From the NCBI GenBank assembly GCA_965204345.1, contig OZ241981.1, positions 1-64,000 of the forward strand: a stretch of DNA of 64,000 nucleotides, read 5' to 3'. The position numbers and the translations under genes were made by a program. Shown piece after piece: positions 12,646-30,213 of the stretch (position 1 is its first letter; each line of letters begins with the position of its first letter). The notes under the pieces were generated by a model. That model ran no database searches. It was not told the origin of the DNA and was given only the letters and a program-made list of their open reading frames with translations. The stretch comes from Nitrosopumilus sp. Its GTDB lineage: Archaea; Thermoproteota; Nitrososphaeria; Nitrososphaerales; Nitrosopumilaceae.

Positions 12646-13061
12646 TTGGATGATGATGATGCCATTGATGATAAAGTTGAGATATTCTCAAATGATGATC
12701 TCAAACTAAAATATTTGGGACAAATACTAAGCAGTGAGTCAAGTAGGAAAATACTGATTCTAGTTGCCAAACAAGAAATATCTGCAAATGATATTGCACA
12801 AGAAACTGACCTTAGACTATCTTTGATAATTCATCATCTAAATAAAATGATTCGGGCCGGCGTTGTCAAAGTAAACAAAATTGGAAAAACACAAAAAGCC
12901 ACGACGTAAAGTATTATACTGTCAAGCTTGGCATATTGATTTTGCCTGAAACTATGGCAAGTAAAGCAAAAAAGAGCAAGACATTGTCAAGCTCACTAAA
13001 ACGTATCATAAGGATTGCAGCAGTTGGCGTGCATGCCATGTCCATCTCTCATCAATTCTGA
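12646..13061 (+). pseudogene. ArsR-type winged-helix regulator, frameshifted and truncated
   Basis: SSRKIL....EISANDIA.ETDL.LSLI.HHLNKM; A5 at 12885-12889 shifts frame; shifted frame continues NTKSHDVKYY...LKRIIRIAAVGV. Confidence 0.75.
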
Positions 13062-13475
13062 GGTGTCATCATGAGTTAATCTGATTGAATGACCAGCCTC
13101 ATGAATGGCGGTGGATTGATAGTCTTTTACCCACCATTTCCACCAATCAACTGATACACGATCGCCCCAGCTGTGATCAGTGTTAAACATGATGTCTGAA
13201 TCAACAATAGCTGGACCGCTAATTTTTAGGACATTACGAGCCCACATATTTGATGGCAGGTCATCAGCCCCAACTGTCATGTCTTCGCCTGAAGAGACCT
13301 CATCAAATACTAGATTAGATGATGGTATGCTATTCCATACACTCACTGCAGTTGCAAAATCCTCACACGGGTTTACACTAGACTCTGTATTTAGATCATC
13401 TAATGAATCCAGGCAACGATAATCAACATCATTGTGTATCCATGCACCAGAACCCACTCCATGGTTTGCAAAAGC
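12996..13475 (-). pseudogene. Matrixin/M10-like metzincin protease fragment lacking most of its signal peptide and native C-terminus
   Basis: HEAGHSIRLTH zinc motif, SELM Met-turn, DSDIMFN; frame begins SLPAFA-NHG immediately after a stop. Confidence 0.7.
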
Positions 13476-13679
13476 AGGGAGAGATTATGATATTTCTTAG
13501 TGATAAATGAGATGGTGATAGGATTAGATGCCATGTACGTAACGTACGTTGTCAGTTCTGTTGAGGTATGTTTGATATGTAAAACCATGGATTGGGAAAA
13601 CCATTATCATCTATTCTTTAACTTGTGACTTGACAAAGTTACACGATTCTTTTAAACTAGTCTTGTAAATGCAGTTTTA

Positions 13680-14303
13680 ATGACTGCAAGCAACGTAAAA
13701 ACACTGCTGTCTGCTGGTTTGATTGCAGCAATGATACTGACATTTGGTGGCATGCAGTTTGTACAATTCCAAGAACCATACACGGAAATGCAGATACAAA
13801 AAACCCCTCGAATCCCAATATGAGAAAGACGCCAAATTCAAAGTAAAAAATCCGCTCTTAGAAAAATTGACTTTGGAATCCGACGAACAATCTCTAAATA
13901 ACAAGCATCAAGCATCTGGTGAAAAATCATCAATGGTAGATGATGACGGTCTCAAACTAGAGAATATTTCTCAACGACTAGGGGAGATTTCTGCAGAGTC
14001 TGGAAAGATAAACGCAGAGTCCCCAAAGATATATGCAACCACACCTGAAGAAAAGAACTTGCTAAAAGCACAACAACAAATTGTAAGGGATTCTAATATA
14101 CCATATCATTCCCTTGGGACTGATATGCAAGCAGGTGCTTTGCTTGTTGGTTTTGAGACTCAGGAAATTGCAGATGAATTCATTCCAACATTAAATGAGA
14201 TATTGTCTGTACCGTACCATGTTGAAATTAGGGCGCCTGATGTAGATCTCTCTCTTGTACAAATCTTGATTCAGATTGTAATCCTCTAGATATACAGACA
14301 TGA
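13680..14303 (+). pseudogene. Secreted protein remnant, probably a protease pro-region; two frameshifts
   Basis: MTASNVKTLLSAGLIAAMILTFGGM signal; shift near A6 13798-13803; shift at (CT)n 14247-14255 gives LSCTNLDSDCNPL then stop. Confidence 0.6.
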
Positions 14304-14310
14304 GAGATCC

Positions 14311-17300
14311 GTGACAAGTGCCACACTTGTATTTAGTTTATTACTGACTGGTTATTTATGTACATATGGAAAAGTATCTGATTATAGTTTTTTTGTTTAT
14401 CATGGGGGGGGGTTATTTTTAATATCGTCTGCATCTCCTGCGTTTGCTCAAGAGACTGCGACCCCAACTATCACGACTGTTGACGATCCCACCAACCTTG
14501 AGATTGTACCGTTTATCGTAACATACGACCAAGACGTCTTTGGGTTTGAATTGGAAAATATTGTCGTATCTGGTACTGCCAACGACAACAAGCCTGAGCC
14601 AATCGATCTTAAGACCATTGATGCACGTACATACACCTTTGATGTTGCACGCGGTTCCTCAGATGGAACAATAACGGTATTTATACCATCATTTGTATCA
14701 ACTGATCCAGACGGCAAAAATTTATCGACTAATTCTGGTGGTCCAATTACTATCACCATAGACACCGTTCCCCTGACAGTCTCTGTAGCTACAACAGCAG
14801 ACAGTCTAACTAACGTCGACACAATACCGTTTACGGTAACATTCAACAAGGATGTTGAGGGTTTTATCCGAGAAGACATTACAGTAACTGGTACTGCCAA
14901 CGGCGGCATCCTTGCAGCATCCAATTTTGAGACAGTTGATGCCCGCACATACACCTTTAACGTTGCAGGGATATCTTCTGACGGAACCGTAATTGTATCC
15001 ATTGCAGCAGATGTGGCAACAGATGATGCAGGCAACTCCAACACCGCATCTGCCCCAGTTACCGTCACCATAGACCCCATTCCCCTGACAGTCTCTGTAG
15101 CTACAACAGCAGACAGTCTAACTAACGTCGACACAATACCGTTTACGGTAACATTCAACAAGGATGTTGAGGGTTTTATCCGAGAAGACATTACAGTAGC
15201 AGGCTCTGCCAACGGCGGCATCCTTGCAGCATCCAATTTTGAGACAGTTGATGCCCGCACATACACCTTTAACGTTGCAGGGATATCTTCTGACGGAACC
15301 GTAATTGTATCCATTGCAGCAGATGTGGCAACAGACTCAGCAGGCAATCCCAACACCGCATCTGCCCCAGTTACCGTCACCATAGACACCGTTCCCCTAA
15401 CTGTCTCTGTATCTACTACTGTAGGAGAGGACACCAATCTTGCTACAATACCGTTTACGGCAACATTCAACAAGGATGTTGAGGATTTTATCCGAGAAGA
15501 CATTACAGTAACTGGCTCTGCCAACGGCGGCATCCTTGCAGCATCTGACTTTGAGACAGTTGATGCCCGCACATACACCTTTAACGTTGCAGGCATATCT
15601 TCTGACGGAACCGTAACTGCATCAATTGCAGCAGATTTGGCAACAGATTCCGCAGGCAACTCCAACATCGCATCTGCCCCAGTTACCGTCACCATAGACA
15701 CCGTTCCCCTAACTGTCTCTGTATCTACAACAGCAGACAGTCTAACTAACGTCGACACAATACCGTTTACGGCAACATTCAACAAGGACGTTGAGGATTT
15801 TGATCTGAGAGATATTACAGTAGCAGGTACTGCCAACAACGGCAACCCCGTGGCATCCAACCTTCTTGGAACAGGTAGTGTCTACACCTTTGATGTTGTA
15901 CGTGGATCCTCTGACGGAACCATAATTGTGTCAATTGCAGCAGATGTGGCAACAGATGTTGCAGGCAACCGCAACGGGGCATCCCCCAGTCCAGTTACTG
16001 TCACCATAGACACCGTTCCCCTAACTGTCTCTGTATCTACTACTGTAGGCGAGGACACCAATCTTGTTACAATACCGTTTACGGCAACATTCAACAAGGC
16101 AGTTGAGGATTTTGAGCTGAGTGACATTACAGTAACGGGTACTGCCAACGGCGGTACTCCGACAGCAGCTAACTTCCAGACAGTTAATGCCCGCACATAC
16201 ACCTTTGATGTTGCTCGCGGCACCACAGACGGAACAGTAACTGCATCCATAGCCGCAGACGTAGCAGCAGACCTTGCAGGCAACCTCAACACTGCATCTA
16301 ATTCAGTTACAATTGAGATAGATACTGAGAGACCACGCCCGCTACTCTTAGGTCCACCTGGCATCACCTCTGATACAGCAACATTGACAGTAGAATTTAG
16401 CGAGGCTGTCCCAGGATTCTCCGAATCTGAATTTACGTTAGATGGCTTGCCACCATTTGATGGATTAACGCCATCCAACATTAGAGGATCGGGCCTGACT
16501 TATACATTTGATATCACACACGCCGAGACTACGGGTATTCTGAATGTTTCCATACCCGCAAATGTGATATCTGATGCGGCAGGCAACGGTAATACAAGAT
16601 CTACTGAAACATTTATTCCAATAGACCTCATACGCCCAACTTCAACTATCACAACTACGTTAACCTCCCCTGTTAACACCGACACAGTACCATTTACTGT
16701 AACATTTAGCGAGGACGTTGGGGAGTTTGTCCTAGCTGACATTACAGTAACGGGTACTGCCAACGGCGGTACTCCTGTAGCATCCAACCTTGATGGAACA
16801 GGCGATGTCTACACCTTTGATGTTGCTCGCGGCAGCACAGACGGAACCGTAACCGTATCAATAGCAGCAGACGTAACAACAGACCTTTTAGGCAATCTCA
16901 ACGAGGCGTCTGACCCAGTTACCGTCACAATAGACACTCTTGCCCCAACTGTCTCTGTCAGTTCGTCTGAAGGCGACAACACCGGACTTGATACGGTACC
17001 ATTTACTGTAACATTTAGCGAGGACGTTGGGGAGTTTGTCCTAGCTGACATTACAGTAACGGGTACTGCAAACGGCGGTGCTCCGGCAGCAGCCAACTTC
17101 CAGACAGTTAATGCCCGCACATACACCTTTGATGTTGCTCGCGGCAGCACAGACGGAACCGTAATTATATCAATAGATGCTGAAGTGGCAGCAGATTCTG
17201 CAGGCAATCTCAACGAGGCGTCTGCTCCAGATACTGTCACCATAGACACCGTGCCCCTGACTGTCTCTGTATCTACAACAGCAGACAGTCTAACTAACGT

Positions 17301-20300
17301 CGACACAATACCGTTTACGGCAACATTCAACAAGGACGTTGAGGATTTTGATCTGAGAGATATTACAGTAGCAGGTACTGCCAACAACGGCAACCCCGTG
17401 GCATCCAACCTTCTTGGAACAGGTAGTGTCTACACCTTTGATGTTGTACGTGGATCCTCTGACGGAACCATAATTGTGTCAATTGCAGCAGATGTGGCAA
17501 CAGATGTTGCAGGCAACCGCAACGGGGCATCCCCCAGTCCAGTTACTGTCACCATAGACACCGTTCCCCTAACTGTCTCTGTATCTACCACTGTAGGCGA
17601 GGATACCAATCTTGCTACAATACCGTTTACGGCAACATTCAACAAGGCAGTTGAGGATTTTGAGCTGAGTGACATTACAATAACTGGTACTGCCAACAAC
17701 GGCACCCTTGCAGCATCTGACTTTGAGACAGTTGATGCCCGCACATACACCTTTAACGTTGCAGGCATATCTTCTGACGGAACCGTAACTGCATCAATTG
17801 CAGCAGATTTGGCAACAGATGATGCAGGCAACTCCAACACCGCATCTGCCCCAGTTACTGTCAACATAGATATCGTTCCCCTAACTGTCTCTGTATCTAC
17901 CACTGTAGGCGAGGACACCAATCTTGCTACAATACCGTTTACGGCAACATTCAACAAGGACGTTGAGGACTTTGATCTGAGAGATATTACAGTAGCAGGT
18001 ACTGCCAACAACGGCAACCCCGTGGCATCCAACCTTCTTGGAACAGGTAGTGTCTACACCTTTGATGTAGTGCGCGGATCCTCTGACGGAACCATAATTG
18101 TGTCAATTGCAGCAGATGTGGCAACAGATGTTGCAGGCAACCGCAACGGGGCATCCCCCAGTCCAGTTACTGTCACCATAGACACCGTTCCCCTAACTGT
18201 CTCTGTATCTACCACTGTAGGCGAGGACACCAATCTTGCTACAATACCGTTTACGGCAACATTCAACAAGGACGTTGAGGACTTTATCCGAGAAGACGTT
18301 ACAATAACTGGTACTGCCAACAACGGCACCCTTGCAGCATCTGACTTTGAGACAGTTGATGCCCGCACATACACCTTTAACGTTGCAGGCATATCTTCTG
18401 ACGGAACCGTAACTGCATCAATTGCAGCAGATTTGGCAACAGACTCAGCAGGCAACTCCAACACCGCATCTGCCCCAGTTACCGTCACCATAGACACCGT
18501 TCCCCTAACTGTCTCTGTATCTACCACTGTAGGCGAGGACACCAATCTTGCTACAATACCGTTTACGGCAACATTCAACAAGGACGTTGAGGACTTTGAT
18601 CTGAGAGATATTACAGTAGCAGGTACTGCCAACAACGGCAACCCCATGGCATCCAACCTTCTTGGAACAGGTAGTGTCTACACCTTTGATGTAGTGCGCG
18701 GATCCTCTGACGGAACCATAATTGTGTCAATTGCAGCAGATGTGGCAACAGATGTTGCAGGCAACCGCAACGGGGCATCCCCCAGTCCAGTTACCGTCAC
18801 CATAGACACCGTTCCCCTAACAGTCTCTGTGTCTACCACGGTAGGCGAGGACACCAATCTTGCTACAATACCGTTTACGGCAACATTCAACAAGGACGTT
18901 GAGGACTTTATCCGAGAAGACATTACAGTAACTGGTACTGCCAACGGCGGCATCCTTGCAGCATCTGACTTTGAGACAGTTGATGCCCGCACATACACCT
19001 TTAACGTTGCAGGCATATCTTCTGACGGAACCGTAACTGCATCAATTGCAGCAGATTTGGCAACAGACATTGCAGGCAACTCCAACACCGCATCTGCCCC
19101 AGTTACTGTCACCATAGACACCGTTCCCCTGACTGTCTCTGTATCTACCACTATAGGCGAGGATACCAATCTTGCTACAATACCGTTTACGGCAACATTC
19201 AACAAGGACGTTGAGGACTTTGATCTGAGAGATATTACAGTAGCAGGTACTGCCAACAACGGCAACCCCGTGGCATCCAACCTTCTTGGAACAGGTAGTG
19301 TCTACACCTTTGATGTAGTGCGCGGATCCTCTGACGGAACCATAATTGTGTCAATTGCAGCAGATGTGGCAACAGATGTTGCAGGCAACCGCAACGGGGC
19401 ATCCCCCAGTCCAGTTACTGTCACCATAGACACCGTTCCCCTAACTGTCTCTGTATCTACCACTGTAGGCGAGGACACCAATCTTGCTACAATACCGTTT
19501 ACGGCAACATTCAACAAGGACGTTGAGGACTTTATCCGAGAAGACATTACAATAACTGGTACTGCCAACAACGGCACCCTTGCAGCATCTGACTTTGAGA
19601 CAGTTGATGCCCGCACATACACCTTTAACGTTGCAGGCATATCTTCTGACGGAACCGTAACTGCATCAATTGCAGCAGATTTGGCAACAGACATTGCAGG
19701 CAACTCCAACACCGCATCTGCCCCAGTTACTGTCACCATAGACACCGTTCCCCTGACTGTCTCTGTATCTACCACTGTAGGCGAGGACACCAATCTTGCT
19801 ACAATACCGTTTACGGCAACATTCAACAAGGACGTTGAGGATTTTGATCTGAGAGATATTACAGTAGCAGGTACTGCCAACAACGGCAACCCCGTGGCAT
19901 CCAACCTTCTTGGAACAGGTAGTGTCTACACCTTTGATGTTGTACGTGGATCCTCTGACGGAACCATAATTGTGTCAATTGCAGCAGATTTGGCAACAGA
20001 TGATGCAGGCAACTCCAACATCGCATCTGCCCCAGTTACTGTCACCATAGACACCGTTCCCCTGACTGTCTCTGTATCTACAACAGCAGACAGTCTAACT
20101 AACGTCGACACAATACCGTTTACGGCAACATTCAACAAGGACGTTGAGGACTTTGATCTGAGAGATATTACAGTAGCAGGTACTGCCAACAACGGCAACC
20201 CCGTGGCATCCAACCTTCTTGGAACAGGTAGTGTCTACACCTTTGATGTTGTACGTGGATCCTCTGACGGAACCATACTTGTGTCAATTACAGCAGATGT

Positions 20301-23300
20301 GGCAACAGATGTTGCAGGCAACCGCAACGGGGCATCCCCCAGTCCAGTTACTGTCACCATAGACACCGTTCCCCTGACTGTCTCTGTATCTACCACTGTA
20401 GGCGAGGACACCAATCTTGCTACAATACCGTTTACGGCAACATTCAACAAGGACGTTGAGGACTTTATCCGAGAAGACCTTACAATAACTGGTACTGCCA
20501 ACGGCGGCACCCTTGCAGCATCCGACTTTGAGACAGTTGATGCCCGCACATACACCTTTAACGTTGCAGGCATATCTTCTGACGGAACCGTAACTGCATC
20601 AATTGCAGCAGGTGTAACAACAGATTCCGCAGGCAACTCCAACACCGCATCTGCCCCAGTTACCGTCACCATAGACACCGTTCCCCTAACTGTTTCTGTA
20701 TCTACCACTGTAGGCGAGGACACCAATCTTGCTACATTACCGTTTACGGCAACATTCAACAAGGACGTTGAGGACTTTGATCTGAGAGATATTACAGTAG
20801 CAGGTACTGCCAACAACGGCAACCCCGTGGCATCCAACCTTCTTGGAACAGGTAGTGTCTACACCTTTGATGTTGTACGTGGATCCTCTGACGGAACCAT
20901 ACTTGTGTCAATTGCAGCAGATGTGGCAACAGATGTTGCAGGCAACCGCAACGGGGCATCCCTCAGTCCAGTTACCGTCACCATAGACACCGTTCCCCTG
21001 ACTGTCTCTGTATCTACCACGGTAGGTGAGTACACCAATCTTGCTACAATACCGTTTACGGCAACATTCAACAAGGACGTTGAGGACTTTATCCGAGAAG
21101 ACCTTACAATAACTGGTACTGCCAACGGCGGCACCCTTGCAGCATCCGACTTTGAGACAGTTGATGCCCGCACATACACCTTTAACGTTGCAGGCATATC
21201 TTCTGACGGAACCGTAACTGCATCAATTGCAGCAGATTTGGCAACAGACATTGCAGGCAACTCCAACACCGCATCTGCCCCAGTTACTGTCACCATAGAC
21301 ACCGTTCCCCTGACTGTCTCTGTATCTACCACGGTAGGCGAGGATACCAATCTTGCTACAATACCGTTTACGGCAACATTCAACAAGGACGTTGAGGATT
21401 TTGAGCTGAGTGACATTACAATAACTGGTACTGCCAACGGCGGCACCCTTGCAGCATCCGACTTTGAGACAGTTGATGCCCGCACATACACCTTTAACGT
21501 TGCAGGCATATCTTCTGACGGAACCGTAACTGCATCAATTGCCGCAGGTGTAACAACAGATTCTGCAGGCAACTCCAACACCGCATCTGCCCCAGTTACC
21601 GTCACCATAGACACCGTTCCCCTGACTGTCTCTGTAGCTACAACAGCAGACAGTCTAACTAACGTCGACACAATACCGTTTACGGCAACATTCAACAAGG
21701 ACGTTGAGGATTTTGATCTGAGAGATATTACAGTAGCAGGTACTGCCAACAACGGCAACCCCATGGCATCCAACCTTCTTGGAACAGGTAGTGTCTACAC
21801 CTTTGATGTAGTGCGCGGATCCTCTGACGGAACCATAATTGTGTCAATTGCAGCAGATGTGGCAACAGATGTTGCAGGCAACCGCAACGGGGCATCCCTC
21901 AGTCCAGTTACTGTCACCATAGACACCGTTCCCCTGACTGTCTCTGTATCTACCACTGTAGGCGAGGACACCAATCTTGCTACAATACCGTTTACGGCAA
22001 CATTCAACAAGGACGTTGAGGATTTTGAGCTGAGTGACATTACAATAACTGGTACTGCCAACGGCGGCACCCTTGCAGCATCCGACTTTGAGACAGTTGA
22101 TGCCCGCACATACACCTTTAACGTTGCAGGCATATCTTCTGACGGAACCGTAACTGCATCAATTGCAGCAGGTGTAACAACAGATTCCGCAGGCAACTCC
22201 AACACCGTATCTGCCCCAGTTACTGTCACCATAGACACCGTTCCCCTGACTGTCTCTGTATCTACTACTGTAGGCGAGGATACCAATCTTGCTACAATAC
22301 CGTTTACGGCAACATTCAACAAGGCAGTTGAGGATTTTGAGCTGAGTGACATTACAATAACTGGTACTGCCAACGGCGGCACCCTTGCAGCATCCGATTT
22401 TGAGACAGTTGATGCCCGCACATACACCTTTAACGTTGCAGGCATATCTTCTGTCGGAACCGTAACTGCATCAATTGCAGCAGGTGTAACAACAGATTCC
22501 GCAGGCAACTCCAACATTGCATCTGCCCCAGTTACCGTCACCATAGACACCGTTCCACTGACTGTCTCTGTGTCTACAACAGCAGACAGTCTAACTAACG
22601 TCGACACAATACCGTTTACGGCAACATTCAACAAGGACGTTGAGGACTTTGATCTGAGAGATATTACAGTAACAGGTACTGCCAACAACGGCAACCCCGT
22701 GGCATCCAACCTTCTTGGAACAGGTAGTGTCTACACCTTTGATGTAGTGCGCGGATCCTCTGACGGAACCATAATTGTGTCAATTGCAGCAGATGTGGCA
22801 ACAGATGTTGCAGGCAACCGCAACGGGGCATCCCCCAGTCCAGTTACTGTCACCATAGACACCGTTCCCCTGACTGTCTCTGTATCTACCACTGTAGGAG
22901 AGGACACCAATCTTGCTACAATACAGTTTACGGCAACATTCAACAAGGCAGTTGAGGACTTTATCCGAGAAGACATTACAATAACTGGTACTGCCAACGG
23001 CGGCACCCTTGCAGCATCCGACTTTGAGACAGTTGATGCCCGCACATACACCTTTAACGTTGCAGGCATATCTTCTGACGGAACCGTAACTGCATCAATT
23101 GCGGCAGATTTGGCAACAGACATTGCAGGCAACTCCAACACCGCATCTGCCCCAGTTACTGTCACCATAGACACCGTTCCCCTGACTGTCTCTGTATCTA
23201 CCACTGTAGGAGAGGACACCAATCTTGCTACAATACCGTTTACGGCAACATTCAACAAGGCAGTTGAGGACTTTATCCGAGAAGACATTACAATAACTGG

Positions 23301-26300
23301 TACTGCCAACGGCGGCACCCTTGCAGCATCCGACTTTGAGACAGTTGATGCCCGCACATACACCTTTAACGTTGCAGGCATATCTTCTGACGGAACCGTA
23401 ACTGCATCAATTGCAGCAGATTTGGCAACAGATGATGCAGGCAACTCCAACACCGCATCTGCCCCAGTTACCGTCACAGTAGACACCTTTGACCCAACCG
23501 TATCCATTACGCCTCTAGATGGCACCATCACCGGTGATGATCCAGTAACATTTACAGTAGAATTTAGCGAGAATGTCCAGAACTTTGAGCTAGGTGACGT
23601 TACGATAACAGGTACTGCCAACGGCAGTGCTCCAGCAGCAGACAACTTTGTAACAATCGATGCCCGCACATACACCTTTGATGTTGTTCGCGGCTCATCA
23701 GACGGAACAGTAATTGTATCCATTGCAGCAGATGTGGCAACAGATGATGCAGGCAACCGCAACGAAGCATCTGCCCCAGTTACCGTCACCATAATTAGCA
23801 ACACGCTACCGCCGGTTCCTACAGTAGCGCCAGTCATAACCCTAGAGCATCCTGTACTAGTGTCATTCCAAGAATTCTCCCTTGATGGGCACTTTACAGA
23901 CCCCGAAGGTGATACGCTATCGTATATCAATCCCGAAGATGGCTGTGCTGGAACCCTGACGCAGCAACAGCCACCACCAACTGGCTCTGATACGTTCAGG
24001 TTTGTATCCTCAACTGCTGAGACATGTACGCTCTCCTTTGACATCTCTGATGGCACTGGTGCCAGCACTGGTGCTGCCTACACTGTCAGCATATCTGTGG
24101 TATTGGATGCCGCACCCGTACGTACTGCAACACCTCTGACAGTTGATGTCCTATCAAGCCAGCCCCGAAAGGTTACACTTGACATTAACAATTATTACAC
24201 AGATACCCAGACACTGACACTAGTCTCTGATCCCACATCTAGTGACTGTACGGACTTTGTCTCTACCATCCTGTCAAACGGACAGTTTGACTTTGAGCCT
24301 ATCAATGCTTTTGCTGGTGCATCAACGTGCACAGTACAGGCAACCTTCTCTGATGGAAACAGGCATACAACTGCAGATCTTACAATAAACTATCTGGATG
24401 CTGCAACAGTATCCCTAGATACAGATGTAACTGATCCTACCAACTCTGAGACCATACAATTTACGGCAACATTTGGCAGTGACGTCACAGGATTTATCGC
24501 AGATGACATTGTCGTGACAATTGACGGAAACCCAGCCACACCTGGCAGCCTGATAACTGAATTTGCTGGAAGCGGTGCTGACTATACCTTTACAGTAACA
24601 CACGGCATCGCCGCAGAAGGACAGCTAACAGTAACCATACCTGCCAATGCTGTCGTAGAGGACAACACAGCAAGTACTACCTCTACACTCACCGTGGACA
24701 GAATAAACCCCTCTGTAACCATCACACCTGCCGATGGTACCACCACTGGCGATGACCCCGTAACGTTTACGGCAACATTTAGTGAGGATGTCCAGAACTT
24801 TGAACTAGGTGACATTACAGTAACTGGCACTGCCAACGGCGGTGCTCCAGCAGCAGACAACTTGCAGGCAGTTAATGCCCACACATACACCTTTGATGTT
24901 ACTCGCGGCTCCTCAGACGGAACCGTAACCATGTCCATAGGTACTGGTGCACTAACAGACCTTGCAGGCAATCTCAATGAGGCATCTGCTCCAGTTACCG
25001 TCACCATAGACACCATTCCTCTGACTGTCTCTGTATCTACAACTGTAGGTGATAACACCAACCTTGCTACAATACCATTTACGGCAACATTCAACAAGAA
25101 CGTTGACTTTGAACTAGGCGACATTACAGTAACGGGCACCGCAAACGACGGCAACCCCGCAGCATCCAACCTTCTTGGAACAGGCAGTGTCTACACCTTT
25201 GATGTTGCTCGCGGCTCCTCAGACGGAACCATAAATGTATCAATAGGTGCTGGTGCGCTAACAGACTCAGCAGGCAACCCCAACACCACATCTAATTTAG
25301 TTACCGTCATAATAGACACTCTTGTTCCAACCGTCTCTGTCATCTCATCTACAGGCAGCAGTACCGGACTTGATACGGTACCGTTTAGAGTAACATTTAG
25401 CGAGGATGTTGAAGAGTTTGTCCTAACTGATATTACAGTAACAGGTACTGCCAACGACGGCATCCTTGCAGCATCCGACTTTGTAACAGCTGATGCCCGC
25501 ACATACACCTTTAACGTTGCAGGCATATCTTCTGACGGAACAGTGATTGTGTCAATTGCAGCAGGCGTGGCAGCAGACCTTGCAAATAACCCCAACACCG
25601 CATCTGCTCCAGTTACCGTCACAATAGATACTACTGTCCCATCAGTATCACTGGACACAACTGTTGCTGATCCTACCAACTCTGAGGCCATCGAATTTAC
25701 TGCAACCTTTAGCGAAGATGTCACAGGATTTGTGCAATCTGATATCCTTGTAGCAATTGACGGAATCCCTGCATCTAATAGCCTGATAACTGCCTTTGAT
25801 GAAATCAGTGGCACCCAATACGACTTTACAGTAACACACGGCATCACCACAGATGGTGAGCTAACAGTAACAATACCTGACAATGCCGTAGAGGGTGGTA
25901 ACACAGCAAGTACTCATACACTTACAGTGGACCGAATAGGGCCATCTGTAACCATCACACCTGCAGATGGTACCGCCACCGGTGATGACCCAGTAACATT
26001 TACTGCAACCTTTAATGAGGATGTCCAAAACTTTGAACTAGGCGACATTACAGTAACGGGCACCGCAAACGACGGCAACCCCGCAGCATCCAACCTTCTT
26101 GGAACAGGCAGTGTCTACACCTTTGATGTTGCTCGCGGCTCCTCAGACGGAACCATAAATGTATCAATAGGTGCTGGTGCGCTAACAGACTCAGCAGGCA
26201 ACCCCAACACCACATCTAATTTAGTTACCGTCATAATAGACACCATTGCCCCAACTGTCTCTGTGACTTCAAATGCAGGTGAGAATACTAACTCTGATAC

Positions 26301-29300
26301 GGTAACATTTACTGCAACCTTTAGCGAGGATGTTGAAGAAATTATCTCTGATAACATTACAGTAACGGGCACTGCCAACGGCGGCACACTTGCAGCAACC
26401 AATGTTCAGACAGTTAATGCCCGCACATACACCTTTGACGTTGTAGGCATATCCACAGACGGAACAATAATTGCATCAATAGGTGCAGATGTGACAACAG
26501 ACCTTGCAGGCAACCCCAACGAGGCATCCATCAGTCCAGTTACCGTCACAGTAGACACCATTCCTCTGACTGTCTCTGTATCTACAACTGTAGGTGATAA
26601 CACCAATCTTGCTACAATACCATTTACGGCAACATTCAACAAGAACGTTGACTTTGAACTAGGCGACATTACAGTAACGGGCACCGCAAACGACGGCAAC
26701 CCCGCAGCATCCAACCTTCTTGGAACAGGCAGTGTCTACACCTTTGATGTTACTCGCGGCTCCTCAGACGGAACCATAAATGTATCAATAGGTGCTGGTG
26801 CGATAACAGACTCAGCAGGCAACCCCAACACCGCATCTAATTTAGTTACCGTCATAATAGACACTCTTGTTCCAACCGTCTCTGTCATCTCATCTACAGG
26901 CAGCAGTACCGGACTTGATACGGTACCGTTTACAGTAGAATTTAGCGAAGATGTTAGGAACTTTGAACTAGGTGACATTACAGTAACGGGCACTGCCAAC
27001 GACGGCATCCTTACAGCATCCGACTTTGTAACAGCTGATGCCCGCACATACACCTTTAACGTTGCAGGCATATCCACAGACGGAACAGTGATTGTGTCAA
27101 TTGCAGCAGGCGTGGCAGCAGACCTTGCAAATAACCCCAACACCGCATCTGCCCCAGTTACCGTCACAATAGATACTACTGTCCCATCAGTATCACTGGA
27201 CACAACTGTTGCTGATCCTACCAACTCTGAGGCCATCGAATTTACTGCAACATTTGACGAAGATGTCACAGGATTTGTGCAATCTGATATCCTTGTAGCA
27301 ATTGACGGAATCCCTGCATCTAATAGCCTGATAACTGCCTTTGATGAAATCAGTGGCACCCAATACGACTTTACAGTAACACATGGAATCGCCACAGATG
27401 GTGAGCTAACAGTAACAATACCTGACAATGCCGTAGAGGGTGGTAACACCGCAAGTGCTATTACACTGACAGTGGACAGGACAAACCCATCTGTATTCAT
27501 TACGCCTGTCGATGGCACCACCACCAGTGATGATCCCGTAACCTTTACTGCAATCTTTACCGAGGACGTTAGGGAATTTATCCTCACTGACATTACAGTA
27601 ACGGGCACTGCCAACGGCGGTGCTCCAGCAGCCAACAACTTGCAGGCAGTTAATCCCCACACATACGCCTTTGAGGTCGCTCGTGGCTCCTCAGACGGAA
27701 CCGTAACCGTATCCATAGGTGCTGGTGCCCTAACAGATCTTGCAGGCAACCTCAACACCGCATCTGCTCCAGTTACCGTCACAATAGACACTACTGTTCC
27801 CAACTCTTTGCCACCGGTTCCAGCACAACGACCCGTTATAACCCTAGAGCACCCAACATTAGCTCCTCCAACATTCTCTCTAGATGACCACTTTACAGAT
27901 CCCGATGATGATACGCTGTTATACACCATCACGGAAGAGGACTGTGACGCACGAATAACGCAAGAGTCCAACGGCGGCATATTTGAGTTTCTTCCCTTCT
28001 TTGCACATACATGTACCATCTCCTTTGACATTTCTGATGGAACCGATGCCAGCACCGGCGGGGCATATGCAGTTAATATAATCGTGGAAGAAGATCCTAG
28101 CCCCACCGTAAGAAACAATCTCAATATTGTGGTACAGCCAGACCAATCCCGTACAGTCATCCTAGATGTCAATGAACTCTTTGCAGACAACAAGGAACTA
28201 GCATTTTCTGCTACTGGCCATAGTTCAAGTGACTGTGTATCTGGCATAATCACAGTAGAAGATCCTCCCACCATGCTAAGCTTTGATCCAAATGATGATT
28301 CAGCAGAGCAATGTGAGGTACGTGTTCGTGTCAATGACGGCAACAGAGATGATGCCATCTATGATATCACGATACAGTATGTGTCTGCTGTTACAGTATC
28401 CCTGAGCACGACTGCCAATCCAATCACCAACCTTGAGACCATACCATTTACTGCAACATTTAGCAGGGACGTCACAGAATTCGTGCAGTCTGATATTGCC
28501 GTGGCAATTGACGGAACTGACACACCCAACCTGATATCTGCATTTAATGGGAGCGGTACTGACTATACCTTTACAGTCACACACGGCATCACCGCAGGTG
28601 GTGAACTAACAGTAACAATACCTGACGGTGCGACAGCAGAGGGCAACACGGCAAGTGTCACTGCTATATTCACAGTGGACAGAATAGATCCATCCGTATC
28701 CATTACGCCTGCCGATGGCACCACTACTGGCAATGACCCCGTAACGTTTACTGCAACCTTTAGCGAGGATGTCCAGAACTTTGAACTAGATGACATTACA
28801 GTAACTGGTACTGCAAACGGCGGCAGTCCTGTAGCATCCAACATTGGTGGCACCGGCAGTGTCTACACCTTTGATGTAGCACGCGGCTCCACAGACGGAA
28901 CCATAGTTGTATCAATAGACACAAAAGTGGCAACAGACCTTGCAGGCAACCCCAACACCGCATCTGCCCCCGTTACCGTCACCATAAACACCACCGTCCC
29001 ATCCGTATCACTGGACACAACAGCAGCTGATCTCACCAACTCTGAGGCCATCGAATTTACTGCAACCTTTAGCGAGGATGTCACAGGATTTGTACAATCT
29101 GATATCGTTGTGGCAGTTGACGGAACCCCTGTAACTAATAGCCTGATAACTGCCTTTGATGAAATCAGTGGTGGTACCCAATACGACTTTACAGTAACAC
29201 ACGGCATCGCCACAGGTGGTGAGCTAACAGTAACCATACCTGACAATGTGGTAGAAGAGGGCAACACAGCAAGTACCCATACACTCACAGTGGACATGGT

Positions 29301-30213
29301 AAACCCATCCGTATCCATTACGCTTGCCGATGGCACCACCACCACCATCATCACCACCACCAACACTGGCAATGACTCCGTAACGTTTACTGCAACCTTT
29401 AGCGAGGACGTTGAGGGATTTATCCTAGATGACATTACAGTAACAGGCACTGCCAACGGTGGCATTCCTGAAGCAACCAACCTTCTTGGAGAAGGCAGTG
29501 TCTACACATTTGATGTATCTCGCGGCTCATCAGACGGAACCGTAACCGTATCAATAGATGCTGATACACTAACAGACCTTGCAGGCAACCCAAATACTAC
29601 ATCCAATGAGCTTAACATAAGAATTGACACCACGCAGACAAATCCTGACAGGCCTACTGCTACGATCTCAGACAGATCCTTAACTGGAGGCGGAGGCAGA
29701 GGCGGCGGTGGAGGCAACTCTCCTGACCCACGGGTATGTGGCCTCCAGCTTTGCAGTGAGATCAATGTGGGAACAGGCTCTGCATCTGGACAAAGCATAT
29801 CTGGAAATAATACCAAGAATGGAACAGGACAAGATCTGATGGATCCAGAGCCTCAAATACTGGGTTCGGAGGAGGATAATATAGTTCCAGAACCCACTGC
29901 GGAAATAGAGATGGATCCAGAACCCACTGCGGAAATAGAGATGGATCCAGAACCAACTGCGGAAATAGAGATGGATCCAGAACCAACTGCGGAAATAGAG
30001 ATGGATCCAGAACCCACTGCGGAAATAGAGATGGATCCGGAACCCCAAACCCGTATGTATGAGGGTACTGATCCAAAGTCAATATGTGGCCCCGGAACAC
30101 AGCTGATAGGCGAAGAATGTGTGGTTGCAGATTCGCAGAAAAGTTCTGAGAATCAGAAGAGCTTCTTTGATGCAATCGCAGACTTCTTTGGCTCCATATT
30201 TGGATTTGTATAA
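14311..30213 (+). CDS. Giant (about 5,300 aa) Ig-like repeat surface protein/adhesin; natural start probably ATG 14366, out of frame via G9 tract
   Basis: About 45 tandem 101-104-aa T/D/V/A/S-rich beta repeats (FTATFNKDV..F...DITVTG...YTF.V...DG...D.AGN.N); two cadherin-like inserts; AFA-QE cleavage site; Cys motifs and amphipathic C-terminus. Confidence 0.9.
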   Translation: MTSATLVFSLLLTGYLCTYGKVSDYSFFVYHGGGLFLISSASPAFAQETATPTITTVDDPTNLEIVPFIVTYDQDVFGFELENIVVSGTANDNKPEPIDLKTIDARTYTFDVARGSSDGTITVFIPSFVSTDPDGKNLSTNSGGPITITIDTVPLTVSVATTADSLTNVDTIPFTVTFNKDVEGFIREDITVTGTANGGILAASNFETVDARTYTFNVAGISSDGTVIVSIAADVATDDAGNSNTASAPVTVTIDPIPLTVSVATTADSLTNVDTIPFTVTFNKDVEGFIREDITVAGSANGGILAASNFETVDARTYTFNVAGISSDGTVIVSIAADVATDSAGNPNTASAPVTVTIDTVPLTVSVSTTVGEDTNLATIPFTATFNKDVEDFIREDITVTGSANGGILAASDFETVDARTYTFNVAGISSDGTVTASIAADLATDSAGNSNIASAPVTVTIDTVPLTVSVSTTADSLTNVDTIPFTATFNKDVEDFDLRDITVAGTANNGNPVASNLLGTGSVYTFDVVRGSSDGTIIVSIAADVATDVAGNRNGASPSPVTVTIDTVPLTVSVSTTVGEDTNLVTIPFTATFNKAVEDFELSDITVTGTANGGTPTAANFQTVNARTYTFDVARGTTDGTVTASIAADVAADLAGNLNTASNSVTIEIDTERPRPLLLGPPGITSDTATLTVEFSEAVPGFSESEFTLDGLPPFDGLTPSNIRGSGLTYTFDITHAETTGILNVSIPANVISDAAGNGNTRSTETFIPIDLIRPTSTITTTLTSPVNTDTVPFTVTFSEDVGEFVLADITVTGTANGGTPVASNLDGTGDVYTFDVARGSTDGTVTVSIAADVTTDLLGNLNEASDPVTVTIDTLAPTVSVSSSEGDNTGLDTVPFTVTFSEDVGEFVLADITVTGTANGGAPAAANFQTVNARTYTFDVARGSTDGTVIISIDAEVAADSAGNLNEASAPDTVTIDTVPLTVSVSTTADSLTNVDTIPFTATFNKDVEDFDLRDITVAGTANNGNPVASNLLGTGSVYTFDVVRGSSDGTIIVSIAADVATDVAGNRNGASPSPVTVTIDTVPLTVSVSTTVGEDTNLATIPFTATFNKAVEDFELSDITITGTANNGTLAASDFETVDARTYTFNVAGISSDGTVTASIAADLATDDAGNSNTASAPVTVNIDIVPLTVSVSTTVGEDTNLATIPFTATFNKDVEDFDLRDITVAGTANNGNPVASNLLGTGSVYTFDVVRGSSDGTIIVSIAADVATDVAGNRNGASPSPVTVTIDTVPLTVSVSTTVGEDTNLATIPFTATFNKDVEDFIREDVTITGTANNGTLAASDFETVDARTYTFNVAGISSDGTVTASIAADLATDSAGNSNTASAPVTVTIDTVPLTVSVSTTVGEDTNLATIPFTATFNKDVEDFDLRDITVAGTANNGNPMASNLLGTGSVYTFDVVRGSSDGTIIVSIAADVATDVAGNRNGASPSPVTVTIDTVPLTVSVSTTVGEDTNLATIPFTATFNKDVEDFIREDITVTGTANGGILAASDFETVDARTYTFNVAGISSDGTVTASIAADLATDIAGNSNTASAPVTVTIDTVPLTVSVSTTIGEDTNLATIPFTATFNKDVEDFDLRDITVAGTANNGNPVASNLLGTGSVYTFDVVRGSSDGTIIVSIAADVATDVAGNRNGASPSPVTVTIDTVPLTVSVSTTVGEDTNLATIPFTATFNKDVEDFIREDITITGTANNGTLAASDFETVDARTYTFNVAGISSDGTVTASIAADLATDIAGNSNTASAPVTVTIDTVPLTVSVSTTVGEDTNLATIPFTATFNKDVEDFDLRDITVAGTANNGNPVASNLLGTGSVYTFDVVRGSSDGTIIVSIAADLATDDAGNSNIASAPVTVTIDTVPLTVSVSTTADSLTNVDTIPFTATFNKDVEDFDLRDITVAGTANNGNPVASNLLGTGSVYTFDVVRGSSDGTILVSITADVATDVAGNRNGASPSPVTVTIDTVPLTVSVSTTVGEDTNLATIPFTATFNKDVEDFIREDLTITGTANGGTLAASDFETVDARTYTFNVAGISSDGTVTASIAAGVTTDSAGNSNTASAPVTVTIDTVPLTVSVSTTVGEDTNLATLPFTATFNKDVEDFDLRDITVAGTANNGNPVASNLLGTGSVYTFDVVRGSSDGTILVSIAADVATDVAGNRNGASLSPVTVTIDTVPLTVSVSTTVGEYTNLATIPFTATFNKDVEDFIREDLTITGTANGGTLAASDFETVDARTYTFNVAGISSDGTVTASIAADLATDIAGNSNTASAPVTVTIDTVPLTVSVSTTVGEDTNLATIPFTATFNKDVEDFELSDITITGTANGGTLAASDFETVDARTYTFNVAGISSDGTVTASIAAGVTTDSAGNSNTASAPVTVTIDTVPLTVSVATTADSLTNVDTIPFTATFNKDVEDFDLRDITVAGTANNGNPMASNLLGTGSVYTFDVVRGSSDGTIIVSIAADVATDVAGNRNGASLSPVTVTIDTVPLTVSVSTTVGEDTNLATIPFTATFNKDVEDFELSDITITGTANGGTLAASDFETVDARTYTFNVAGISSDGTVTASIAAGVTTDSAGNSNTVSAPVTVTIDTVPLTVSVSTTVGEDTNLATIPFTATFNKAVEDFELSDITITGTANGGTLAASDFETVDARTYTFNVAGISSVGTVTASIAAGVTTDSAGNSNIASAPVTVTIDTVPLTVSVSTTADSLTNVDTIPFTATFNKDVEDFDLRDITVTGTANNGNPVASNLLGTGSVYTFDVVRGSSDGTIIVSIAADVATDVAGNRNGASPSPVTVTIDTVPLTVSVSTTVGEDTNLATIQFTATFNKAVEDFIREDITITGTANGGTLAASDFETVDARTYTFNVAGISSDGTVTASIAADLATDIAGNSNTASAPVTVTIDTVPLTVSVSTTVGEDTNLATIPFTATFNKAVEDFIREDITITGTANGGTLAASDFETVDARTYTFNVAGISSDGTVTASIAADLATDDAGNSNTASAPVTVTVDTFDPTVSITPLDGTITGDDPVTFTVEFSENVQNFELGDVTITGTANGSAPAADNFVTIDARTYTFDVVRGSSDGTVIVSIAADVATDDAGNRNEASAPVTVTIISNTLPPVPTVAPVITLEHPVLVSFQEFSLDGHFTDPEGDTLSYINPEDGCAGTLTQQQPPPTGSDTFRFVSSTAETCTLSFDISDGTGASTGAAYTVSISVVLDAAPVRTATPLTVDVLSSQPRKVTLDINNYYTDTQTLTLVSDPTSSDCTDFVSTILSNGQFDFEPINAFAGASTCTVQATFSDGNRHTTADLTINYLDAATVSLDTDVTDPTNSETIQFTATFGSDVTGFIADDIVVTIDGNPATPGSLITEFAGSGADYTFTVTHGIAAEGQLTVTIPANAVVEDNTASTTSTLTVDRINPSVTITPADGTTTGDDPVTFTATFSEDVQNFELGDITVTGTANGGAPAADNLQAVNAHTYTFDVTRGSSDGTVTMSIGTGALTDLAGNLNEASAPVTVTIDTIPLTVSVSTTVGDNTNLATIPFTATFNKNVDFELGDITVTGTANDGNPAASNLLGTGSVYTFDVARGSSDGTINVSIGAGALTDSAGNPNTTSNLVTVIIDTLVPTVSVISSTGSSTGLDTVPFRVTFSEDVEEFVLTDITVTGTANDGILAASDFVTADARTYTFNVAGISSDGTVIVSIAAGVAADLANNPNTASAPVTVTIDTTVPSVSLDTTVADPTNSEAIEFTATFSEDVTGFVQSDILVAIDGIPASNSLITAFDEISGTQYDFTVTHGITTDGELTVTIPDNAVEGGNTASTHTLTVDRIGPSVTITPADGTATGDDPVTFTATFNEDVQNFELGDITVTGTANDGNPAASNLLGTGSVYTFDVARGSSDGTINVSIGAGALTDSAGNPNTTSNLVTVIIDTIAPTVSVTSNAGENTNSDTVTFTATFSEDVEEIISDNITVTGTANGGTLAATNVQTVNARTYTFDVVGISTDGTIIASIGADVTTDLAGNPNEASISPVTVTVDTIPLTVSVSTTVGDNTNLATIPFTATFNKNVDFELGDITVTGTANDGNPAASNLLGTGSVYTFDVTRGSSDGTINVSIGAGAITDSAGNPNTASNLVTVIIDTLVPTVSVISSTGSSTGLDTVPFTVEFSEDVRNFELGDITVTGTANDGILTASDFVTADARTYTFNVAGISTDGTVIVSIAAGVAADLANNPNTASAPVTVTIDTTVPSVSLDTTVADPTNSEAIEFTATFDEDVTGFVQSDILVAIDGIPASNSLITAFDEISGTQYDFTVTHGIATDGELTVTIPDNAVEGGNTASAITLTVDRTNPSVFITPVDGTTTSDDPVTFTAIFTEDVREFILTDITVTGTANGGAPAANNLQAVNPHTYAFEVARGSSDGTVTVSIGAGALTDLAGNLNTASAPVTVTIDTTVPNSLPPVPAQRPVITLEHPTLAPPTFSLDDHFTDPDDDTLLYTITEEDCDARITQESNGGIFEFLPFFAHTCTISFDISDGTDASTGGAYAVNIIVEEDPSPTVRNNLNIVVQPDQSRTVILDVNELFADNKELAFSATGHSSSDCVSGIITVEDPPTMLSFDPNDDSAEQCEVRVRVNDGNRDDAIYDITIQYVSAVTVSLSTTANPITNLETIPFTATFSRDVTEFVQSDIAVAIDGTDTPNLISAFNGSGTDYTFTVTHGITAGGELTVTIPDGATAEGNTASVTAIFTVDRIDPSVSITPADGTTTGNDPVTFTATFSEDVQNFELDDITVTGTANGGSPVASNIGGTGSVYTFDVARGSTDGTIVVSIDTKVATDLAGNPNTASAPVTVTINTTVPSVSLDTTAADLTNSEAIEFTATFSEDVTGFVQSDIVVAVDGTPVTNSLITAFDEISGGTQYDFTVTHGIATGGELTVTIPDNVVEEGNTASTHTLTVDMVNPSVSITLADGTTTTIITTTNTGNDSVTFTATFSEDVEGFILDDITVTGTANGGIPEATNLLGEGSVYTFDVSRGSSDGTVTVSIDADTLTDLAGNPNTTSNELNIRIDTTQTNPDRPTATISDRSLTGGGGRGGGGGNSPDPRVCGLQLCSEINVGTGSASGQSISGNNTKNGTGQDLMDPEPQILGSEEDNIVPEPTAEIEMDPEPTAEIEMDPEPTAEIEMDPEPTAEIEMDPEPTAEIEMDPEPQTRMYEGTDPKSICGPGTQLIGEECVVADSQKSSENQKSFFDAIADFFGSIFGFV
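14404..14412 (+). repeat. Poly-G (G9) tract in signal-peptide coding region
   Basis: ATCATGGGGGGGGGTTATTTTTAA; G7 or G10 would join ATG 14366 to the main ORF. Confidence 0.85.
14755..23790 (+). repeat. Tandem 309-312-bp coding repeats with a 624-bp higher-order A/B period
   Basis: Equivalent positions recur at 17408, 18032, 18656, 19280 and 19904; near-identical DNA. Confidence 0.95.
25007..27449 (+). repeat. About 900-bp internal duplication (25007-25904 approx. equals 26552-27449, offset 1545)
   Basis: Near-identical three-domain block; identical shadow ORFs at 25648 and 27193. Confidence 0.9.
29887..30045 (+). repeat. 30-bp tandem repeat x5 plus partial copy (PEPTAEIEMD)
   Basis: CCAGAACC(C/A)ACTGCGGAAATAGAGATGGAT repeated directly. 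Confidence 0.95.

Follow-up and report, generated by a model that had tools for sequence, protein, structure and literature searches.

The window analysed here (64,000 nucleotides, i.e., positions 1-64000 of contig C1 of G000, a Nitrosopumilus sp. genome of 2.12 Mb with nine contigs, 38.7% guanine plus cytosine (GC), and 99.7% completeness) contains a gene for a giant repeat protein whose signal-peptide coding region includes a homopolymer of nine G residues (G9). The features of this gene that are needed below are listed with their positions in the window and their strand; a downward arrow marks the expected signal-peptide cleavage site here and throughout.

14311..14313, + strand: GTG in frame with the giant open reading frame (ORF) in the G9 state, an alternative start under a rival reading
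14337..14343, + strand: TATA-like box TTTATTA, 23 nt upstream of ATG 14366, opposite TATAATATA of a paralogue and at equal distance to the start
14366..14403, + strand: start codon with the N-terminal portion of the signal peptide (MEKYLIIVFLFI), followed by the AT of an ATG whose G opens the tract (translation and paralogue alignment)
14388..14394, + strand: run of seven T residues (T7) within the leader; T6 in a contig of depth 9 from a public run of 2010 (X6)
14404..14412, + strand: G9 homopolymer GGGGGGGGG, candidate slippage switch; ten (G10) or seven (G7) G residues would join the leader to the giant ORF
14413..14448, + strand: remaining signal peptide LFLISSASPAFA in the frame of the giant ORF, with cleavage expected before Q 14449 (SPAFA↓Q conserved in paralogues)
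14420..14422, + strand: TAA that ends the ATG 14366 frame in the G9 state (translation)
14449..30213, + strand: predicted mature giant surface protein of ~5250 amino acids (aa), with Big_12 immunoglobulin (Ig)-like repeats, a conserved C-terminal tail, and the stop codon (Pfam, paralogues)

Start codon and frame of the giant gene

In the G9 state, ATG 14366 opens a frame of only 18 codons (MEKYLIIVFLFIMGGGYF) followed by a stop, and the first 16 leader residues are cut off from LFLISSASPAFA↓QET. The 5300-aa ORF, which extends from GTG 14311 to 30213 on the + strand, lies in a frame other than that of ATG 14366 and continues for 15.8 kb downstream of the tract without any stop. The tract is located 38 nt after ATG 14366, within the signal-peptide coding region, and represents the single frame break in the giant gene, the Big_12 repeats being intact. 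From ATG 14366, G10 gives a protein of 5282 aa (reading ATG GGG GGG GGG TTA at the tract) and G7 one of 5281 aa. The original prediction, made from the sequence alone, had placed a G9 tract at 14404-14412 and a stop after 18 codons, and both were confirmed by sequence and translation; its statement that no other G or C run in the window is this long also proved true, as the tract is the sole G/C run of at least 7 nt at C1:1-64000 in a list of all such runs in the genome.

Big_12 was found by Pfam in both halves of the protein (E 2.7e-99 and 6.3e-83, with nine stretches reported per half). Given these Ig-like repeats, it is predicted to be a giant protein of the surface or adhesin-like type. 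In protein databases, the 128 residues directly following the tract gave no match of near length and, among longer proteins, only two distant matches (50-53% identity), from neither of which the state of the tract could be read.

Two paralogues are present in the genome, at C1:382968-401474 (- strand, 6168 aa) and C1:1894613-1912780 (+ strand, 6055 aa). Both share with the giant protein the C-terminal tail CGPGTQL..C..ADSQ.SSE.QK.FF.AI.DFF.S.FGF and the end of the signal peptide, ..FLISS(A/I)SPAFA↓Q; the tract is present in only one of these three members of the Big_12 family. The first paralogue begins VNKHLIIVFFVCGIFLISSISPAFA↓QT six codons past an in-frame stop, suggesting that the family has no N-terminal extension, and its start at C1:401456 on the - strand (VNKHLIIVFFVCG..) aligns base for base with the region of ATG 14366. 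Up to the cleavage site, the sole length difference between the two genes is a gap of 8 nt opposite ..ATCATG and G9, the paralogue being shorter; this difference becomes 9 with G10 and 6 with G7. The stretch from the start to GC(C/T) CA(G/A) must be a single frame in both genes, and the difference must therefore be a multiple of three, which it is with G10 or G7 only; as judged from this alignment, ATG 14366 is the authentic start, with G10 as the coding length and G9 out of frame. Visual inspection and homology to the two paralogues show MEK, a hydrophobic stretch, and AFA↓Q in the leader from ATG 14366; the paralogue alignment and the shared C-terminal tail support the earlier claim that G10 or G7 would restore a leader, predicted to be of Sec type, to the giant ORF. 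The TATA-like box at 14337..14343 is a putative promoter, which suggests a leaderless or short-leader mRNA; with the box only 23 nt upstream of ATG 14366, such an mRNA would exclude GTG 14311.

Tract length and gene junction in natural populations

The stretch from 12800 to 14800 is present in 18 public sequencing runs from six studies, mostly of sponge metagenomes. We compared four of these (X1, X5, X6, and X8) through Logan contigs, which give one consensus per run and drop minority variants. The X1 contig (3.7 kb, depth 206) is near-identical to the window, carries G9, and may represent the window's own source; for each of the four runs of the study of X1, from two samples, the fraction of sampled G9-sequence words present is 1.00. 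The X5 contig, from a sponge metagenome of an independent study, carries G10 at a depth of 141 and differs from the window over 14259-14797 (~540 nt) by one extra G, with 0 other differences. Tract length thus differs between populations with otherwise identical flanks, one of the two lengths being in frame and the other out of frame. The original prediction had proposed a comparison of G-run lengths within and between samples; G9 in X1 versus G10 in X5 bears out the part that concerns populations, with a single consensus per run standing for each sample. In X6 (depth 6-9), contigs end and begin inside the tract, and its length is therefore unreadable. Exact-pattern scans with the 3′ flank of the tract found 0 loci in metagenome contigs and 0 loci in genome contigs. 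Six RNA runs (X11-X16) contain 0.27-0.42 of the sampled words of the stretch.

The 5′ junction of the giant gene is itself polymorphic. The X8 contig matches the window as far as 14288, where it passes into unrelated sequence; the assembly graph of X5 branches at the same point, with depth falling from 252 to 141. The adhesin cassette thus shows a junction or presence/absence polymorphism at its 5′ end in natural populations. The departure of X8, at 14288/14289, falls directly after the stop codon of the upstream gene.

This upstream gene is one of several neighbours. A matrixin-like fragment and a small membrane-anchored protein are encoded upstream of the giant gene, and a branched-chain amino-acid ATP-binding cassette (ABC) transporter operon is located downstream.

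13680..14289, + strand: upstream gene, ATG 13680, with an N-terminal membrane helix; frameshifted in the window at a run of six A residues (A6, 13798-13803)

A Pfam search of the protein encoded at 13680-14289 returned no family. Five A residues (A5) at 13798-13803 would join ATG 13680 with the ORF at 13744-14289 into one gene of ~203 aa, and this A5 form, with an intact upstream ORF, is found in the contigs of X5, X6, and X8, i.e., in three other studies. The last codons of the gene contain a (TC)4 microsatellite (14247-14254; ~110 nt upstream of ATG 14366), which is longer than in the window by three units in X5 and X6 (in frame) and by one unit in X8 (frameshift). All three contigs differ from the window in a single-nucleotide polymorphism (SNP) at 14128, in A5 for A6, and in one to three more TC units.

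Long G/C tracts in the genome and in related species

G/C runs of 7, 8, 9, 10, and 11 nt occur 41, 7, 3, 6, and 2 times, respectively, on C1. A geometric fit (p = 0.234) predicts 2.5, 0.58, and 0.14 runs of 9, 10, and 11 nt; eight runs of at least 10 nt were observed versus ~0.75 expected. The probability that a run continues is ~0.2 at lengths 1-5 and 0.61-0.73 at lengths 8 to 10, and under a liberal null model (continuation 0.30 from length 7 up) the 11 runs of at least 9 nt have P = 0.02. Long G/C tracts are over-represented in this genome, and the tract is more than a product of chance. Codon use points the same way: GGG is the rarest glycine codon (10% genome-wide, 4.4% in the giant gene), and Gly-Gly-Gly written purely as GGG is therefore unexpected (p ~0.001 for three in succession by codon use); only one of 157 runs of at least three glycine codons, in ORFs of at least 300 aa, begins GGG GGG GGG.

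The effect of each tract on the reading frame was assessed by a script that simulated length changes of one or two bases. Three of the 11 tracts of at least 9 nt on C1 are intragenic, and all three are out of frame, needing +1 or -2; four of the 11 directly involve giant surface-protein or DNA methylase genes. The remaining tracts are intergenic. Besides the G9 tract, the following were found on C1:

C1:722756-722765: C10 tract within an N6_N4_Mtase domain, which it interrupts between profile positions 35 and 39
C1:1029220-1029229: G10 tract between a 120-aa N-terminal ORF and a 596-aa N6_N4_Mtase ORF
C1:463250-463259: G10 (coding strand) that precedes, by 66 nt, the ATG of an 8450-aa gene from a second giant family (MVSITSIKSKSKREFGAL..); a TATA-like TTTTATTAAT closely follows the tract
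C1:1807483-1807493: intergenic G11 between TFB-like and ABC-ATPase (SufC-like) genes
Intergenic: tract between a secreted subtilase and a secreted protein
Intergenic: tract upstream of an ABC permease
Intergenic: tract near a restriction-modification cluster
Intergenic: three further tracts with no clear neighbour
Positions of these last six intergenic tracts: C1:293878, 329499, 371461, 408900, 434415, and 1539993

The two split N6_N4_Mtase genes are candidates for phase variation of DNA methyltransferases in an archaeon. A search of 80 genomes of the genus returned no orthologue for the split methylase at E<=1e-20, so there is no orthologous tract with which to compare lengths. The close paralogues of the 8450-aa gene have no tract, and G10 at C1:463250 may act as a switch at the promoter level. 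As a control for assembly quality, we classified shorter runs and A/T runs in ORFs with a crude classifier; all 41 G/C runs of 7-8 nt and 37 of 40 A/T runs of 9 nt were in frame, suggesting that the assembly is not generally noisy at homopolymers.

Richness in such tracts varies across the genus. Among 61 genomes, 15 (G000 included) have at least ten overlapping G9 matches and 20 have none; the count for G062 (328 overlapping matches) is a likely artefact, as it includes runs of more than 30 G residues and runs at contig ends. The tract-rich genomes G017, G052, and G002 have 25, 21, and 19 tracts of at least 9 nt, respectively, and we examined 20 tracts each in G017 and G052 (sampled loci with 36% and 39% GC). 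In G017, eight of the 20 occur in paralogous genes, at ~120 nt from the start; the encoded proteins open with MKYVASS..LLTVFAAFGLAQR-(G)n-RNTITASALLTVFAV..AFA↓Q, and the frames are open for more than 1000 aa in seven of the eight, a length limited by the sequence retrieved. These leader tracts (three of G11, three of G12, one of G13, and one of G14) are in frame with the ATG in five genes and out of frame in two, the 5′ part of the eighth being replaced; a pattern scan found this type of flank in G017 alone. Two further tracts of G017 concern methylases, one separating a 401-aa ORF from a full N6_N4_Mtase ORF and the other preceding an N6_N4_Mtase ORF that lacks profile positions 1-69. Nine of the 20 G052 tracts belong to another giant-protein family, with the pattern VKTPIHIILLSALVLTMYIIPAPGE-(G)n-..VAYA↓VDIPT, at a distance of 75 nt from the start (161 nt for one copy); six of these are in frame (five G11, one G12), and the other three, all G12, need -1. 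An EcoRI-type methylase of G052 is interrupted by a G11 (profile positions 1-96 before the tract, 244-345 after it), and six tracts (L058, L061-L064, and L067) lie at the same codon position, as A(n)G(9-12), in copies of an insertion sequence (IS) transposase of the IS4/5 family. Some of these transposase copies are in frame and some are out.

The giant proteins of G017 and G052, of beta-propeller and Ig-like type, are not orthologous to that of the window, and the design of a leader tract in a giant protein gene thus recurs independently. Not every tract need be a switch, as the G11 between the TFB-like and ABC-ATPase genes is found at the same place and with the same length in G000 and G017 (L030), which suggests a conserved function rather than a switch for this tract.

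Two patterns of strand were also recorded. Eight of the 11 tracts in G000 have their G residues on the locally C-rich strand, a GC-skew pattern that is inseparable from gene orientation and may reflect either replication direction or gene orientation. The tracts of the G017 chromosome are arranged in strand blocks (11 minus, 12 plus, 2 minus).

We searched for mismatch repair genes in G000 and in relatives. MutS_V and NucS_C were not found in G000 (control genomes gave matches), and MutS was not found in any of five relatives checked, tract-poor ones included; the NucS_C domain was found in the tract-rich G017 and G052 only, among six genomes checked. Repair-gene content as the cause of tract richness was rejected, as it does not separate tract-rich from tract-poor genomes.

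Proposed phase variation and its alternatives

The locus is probably a slipped-strand contingency locus, present in the window at its OFF length and in another sponge population at its ON length. Under this reading, the tract would be a hypermutable homopolymer in the signal-peptide coding region of a giant Ig-repeat protein translated from ATG 14366. With G10 or G7, the leader MEKYLIIVFLFIMGG(G) would continue into LFLISSASPAFA↓QET and the ~5280-aa protein would be exported; with G9, the ribosome would stop after 18 codons, and the protein would be lost. Replication slippage would add or remove a G, and lineages and probably cells would toggle the gene, which we propose to be favoured by the lack of MutS and NucS in this genome. 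Frequent and reversible slippage would then account for the length differences, and the locus would be one of ~11 long G/C tracts, several of them in DNA methylase and surface-protein genes, that make up a small "phasome". Several of the marks by which contingency loci are usually recognised were found, i.e., a tract of suitable length (at least ~8 G/C) and placement in the 5′ coding region, a frame shift relative to the start, a length difference between populations, and an excess of tracts in surface-protein and restriction-modification (RM) genes, along with weak or absent mismatch repair, which is a frequent correlate and not strictly defining. Phase variation is well supported by this indirect evidence and is not yet demonstrated. 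The claim of the original prediction that a contingency locus had been caught in the OFF state is thus partly supported by the G9 and G10 populations, the tract excess, the gene classes, and the relatives; its reversible switching and the silence of G9 are inferred.

Several observations weigh against this reading. A separate frameshift of the window's strain, at an ordinary A6 in the neighbouring gene upstream, is compatible with decay of the locus as well as with switching, and the giant ORF stays open from GTG 14311 even with G9. MutS is lacking across the genus, tract-poor genomes included. For tract length, only two runs are informative (X1 and X5), both as consensus contigs; X1, of unspecified sequencing platform, is possibly the window's own data. 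The intragenic tracts on C1 all need +1 (three of three), the outcome expected if long G runs were systematically undercalled. The ON and OFF calls in G017 and G052 depend on homopolymers of 11-14 nt in assemblies of unspecified technology. Lastly, the proposed comparison of orthologues yielded no conserved tract of variable length: a DNA search of 40 relatives with the 5′ end of the gene found no orthologue, only paralogues in G000 itself and a weak hit in G016, and the pattern of poly-G followed by ..CCNGCNTTYGCNCA matched G000 alone among 121 genomes of the genus. With no orthologous 5′ end in the 40 relatives and no poly-G before SPAFAQ in the 120 other genomes, conservation of the window's tract is not demonstrable.

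The tract could also carry a fixed, strain-specific frameshift, i.e., the gene could be an early pseudogene in which the mutation merely fell in the tract, with no adaptive or frequent switching. The frameshifted upstream gene, for which X5, X6, and X8 have A5, is consistent with such decay, as are the structural variability of the locus (X8 leaves it at 14288, where X5 branches and drops from a depth of 252 to 141) and the low divergence between strains, which makes an intact 15.8-kb ORF weak evidence against very recent loss. We nevertheless regard a fixed lesion as unlikely. Several lesions or lost constraint, as expected of a decaying pseudogene, were not seen in the giant gene, which has no second lesion in 15.8 kb, yet the neighbouring upstream gene has its separate frameshift. 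The lesion lies precisely in a tract with improbable all-GGG coding, long G/C tracts are over-represented, and the same design is found in mixed states in gene families of two relatives.

An error of assembly or base calling, with long G runs undercalled by one and a source population that really has G10, is considered improbable. Homopolymers of 9-11 nt are the commonest error class of long-read assemblies, all three intragenic tracts of at least 9 nt need +1, and X1 may be the same data as the assembly. Against an undercall, an independent k-mer assembly of X1 gives G9 at a depth of 206, and the four runs of its study, from two samples, hold 1.00 of the sampled G9 words; the 41 of 41 G/C runs of 7-8 nt and 37 of 40 A/T runs of 9 nt in frame also oppose it. 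In addition, the strain differs from X5 at sites outside homopolymers too (the SNP at 14128 and the (TC)n microsatellite), and the out-of-frame copies in G052 need -1 rather than +1.

Still less probable is a switch of leaders instead of an OFF state, in which the G9 form would be translated from GTG 14311 with an alternative N-terminus of 46 residues that still ends in SPAFA↓Q. Upstream of the tract, the giant frame contains no stop for 38 codons and includes GTG 14311, an arrangement with a roughly estimated chance probability of ~0.06-0.1; the cleavage region is also retained. Opposed to this are the in-frame stop six codons upstream of the paralogue's start and the TATA-like box, whose position 23 nt upstream of ATG 14366 would leave GTG 14311 outside the transcript. 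Moreover, the extension has no positive n-region and places 30 residues between the first hydrophobic stretch and the cleavage site, and T6 in X6 would disrupt the GTG 14311 frame unless the G tract compensates. Rescue of G9 at the level of RNA or the ribosome (transcriptional slippage or +1 frameshifting, with low constitutive full-length protein) is highly improbable, even though the RNA runs contain part of the stretch and, in insect endosymbionts, frameshifted genes are rescued by slippage of transcription at long homopolymers, as known rescue of this kind is mostly on A/T runs.

Returning to phase variation, the proposed switch resembles several bacterial systems. Neisseria pilC1 and pilC2 have a poly-G tract in the signal-peptide coding region; there as here, a G homopolymer lies in the leader of an adhesin and a change of one G moves the mature protein into or out of frame. 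PilC is a bacterial, pilus-associated protein of ~1000 aa, whereas the protein described here is an archaeal Big_12 protein of ~5280 aa with a candidate switch that is read from sequence. In Neisseria opa genes, CTCTT repeats lie in the leader of each paralogue, and in G017 and G052, too, each member of the surface families has its own leader tract, with paralogues in different frames; the opa repeat is a pentamer rather than a homopolymer, and only one of three family members has a tract in the window's genome. Campylobacter jejuni and Helicobacter pylori have multi-locus poly-G/C contingency genes, including those of restriction-modification, such as Cj0031. The likeness extends to AT-rich genomes without classical mismatch repair, ~10-25 G/C tracts of 9-14 nt per genome, and tracts in surface-protein and methylase genes with a mix of in-frame and out-of-frame states. 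The differences are that the present organisms are Archaea, symbionts or environmental nitrifiers and not pathogens, that the targets are giant adhesin families, and that some tracts are intergenic, one of them conserved at G11 in two species. Phase-variable DNA methyltransferases, such as those encoded by Type III mod genes, control "phasevarions"; two other poly-G tracts of G000 split N6_N4_Mtase genes, and relatives show the same, a likeness that concerns other members of the tract set than the adhesin.

Repeat-slippage switching of surface proteins and RM enzymes is regarded as a bacterial trait, mostly of pathogens. If the tracts switch, sponge-dwelling ammonia-oxidising archaea would use the same bet-hedging logic. 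A costly attachment protein of 5000 aa, together with methylomes, could be varied against host recognition, phagocytosis, or viruses. This would affect the delimitation of symbiont strains, the annotation of "pseudogenes" in metagenome-assembled archaea, and the polishing of homopolymer "errors". More tentatively, with chances that we judge to be slightly short of even, a clade of the genus that includes this sponge-associated species may run a multi-locus poly-G "phasome", in which giant protein families, methyltransferases (archaeal phasevarions), and even IS transposases are toggled by tracts of G9-G14. Such a phasome would be the first contingency system with multiple loci to be found in Archaea, and it would belong to a nitrifying symbiont, not to a pathogen.

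Published surveys bear on this in part. Orsi et al. 2010 (PMC2831843) covered homopolymeric tracts in 18 archaeal genomes and report effects mainly of poly(A/T); neither poly(C/G) nor tracts of more than 8 nt showed a 5′ bias. A 2025 review (PMC11868660) names surface structures and RM systems as the main phase-variable classes, describes multi-locus phase-variable genomes as apparently restricted to pathogens, and asks for archaeal surveys; a 2025 preprint (10.1101/2025.10.21.683753) contains the statement that contingency loci have been described in archaea. The main text of two comparative studies that include sponge-associated ammonia-oxidising archaea (PMC7848895 and PMC11410982) makes no mention of phase variation, homopolymers, or frameshifts. 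In agreement with the original prediction, no description of such a switch in ammonia-oxidising archaea was found in the literature, supplementary tables being outside the search; the switch would thus be of a known kind, in a domain and a lifestyle for which no description was found.

Two further observations concern the assembly as a whole. The eight small contigs of G000 (C2-C9) are variants of C1 regions with 86-99.8% identity, and C6 equals C1:211899-254921 except for one replaced stretch of 11 kb; they are co-assembled strain variants, which explains the 3.5% "contamination" of the assembly. Moreover, a unit of ~3.6 kb with an ORF of ~874 aa occurs at least 13 times on C1 (~1.398-1.440 Mb and 2.006-2.034 Mb); its copies share an identical flank that contains G7 and represent a tandem or dispersed repeat family.

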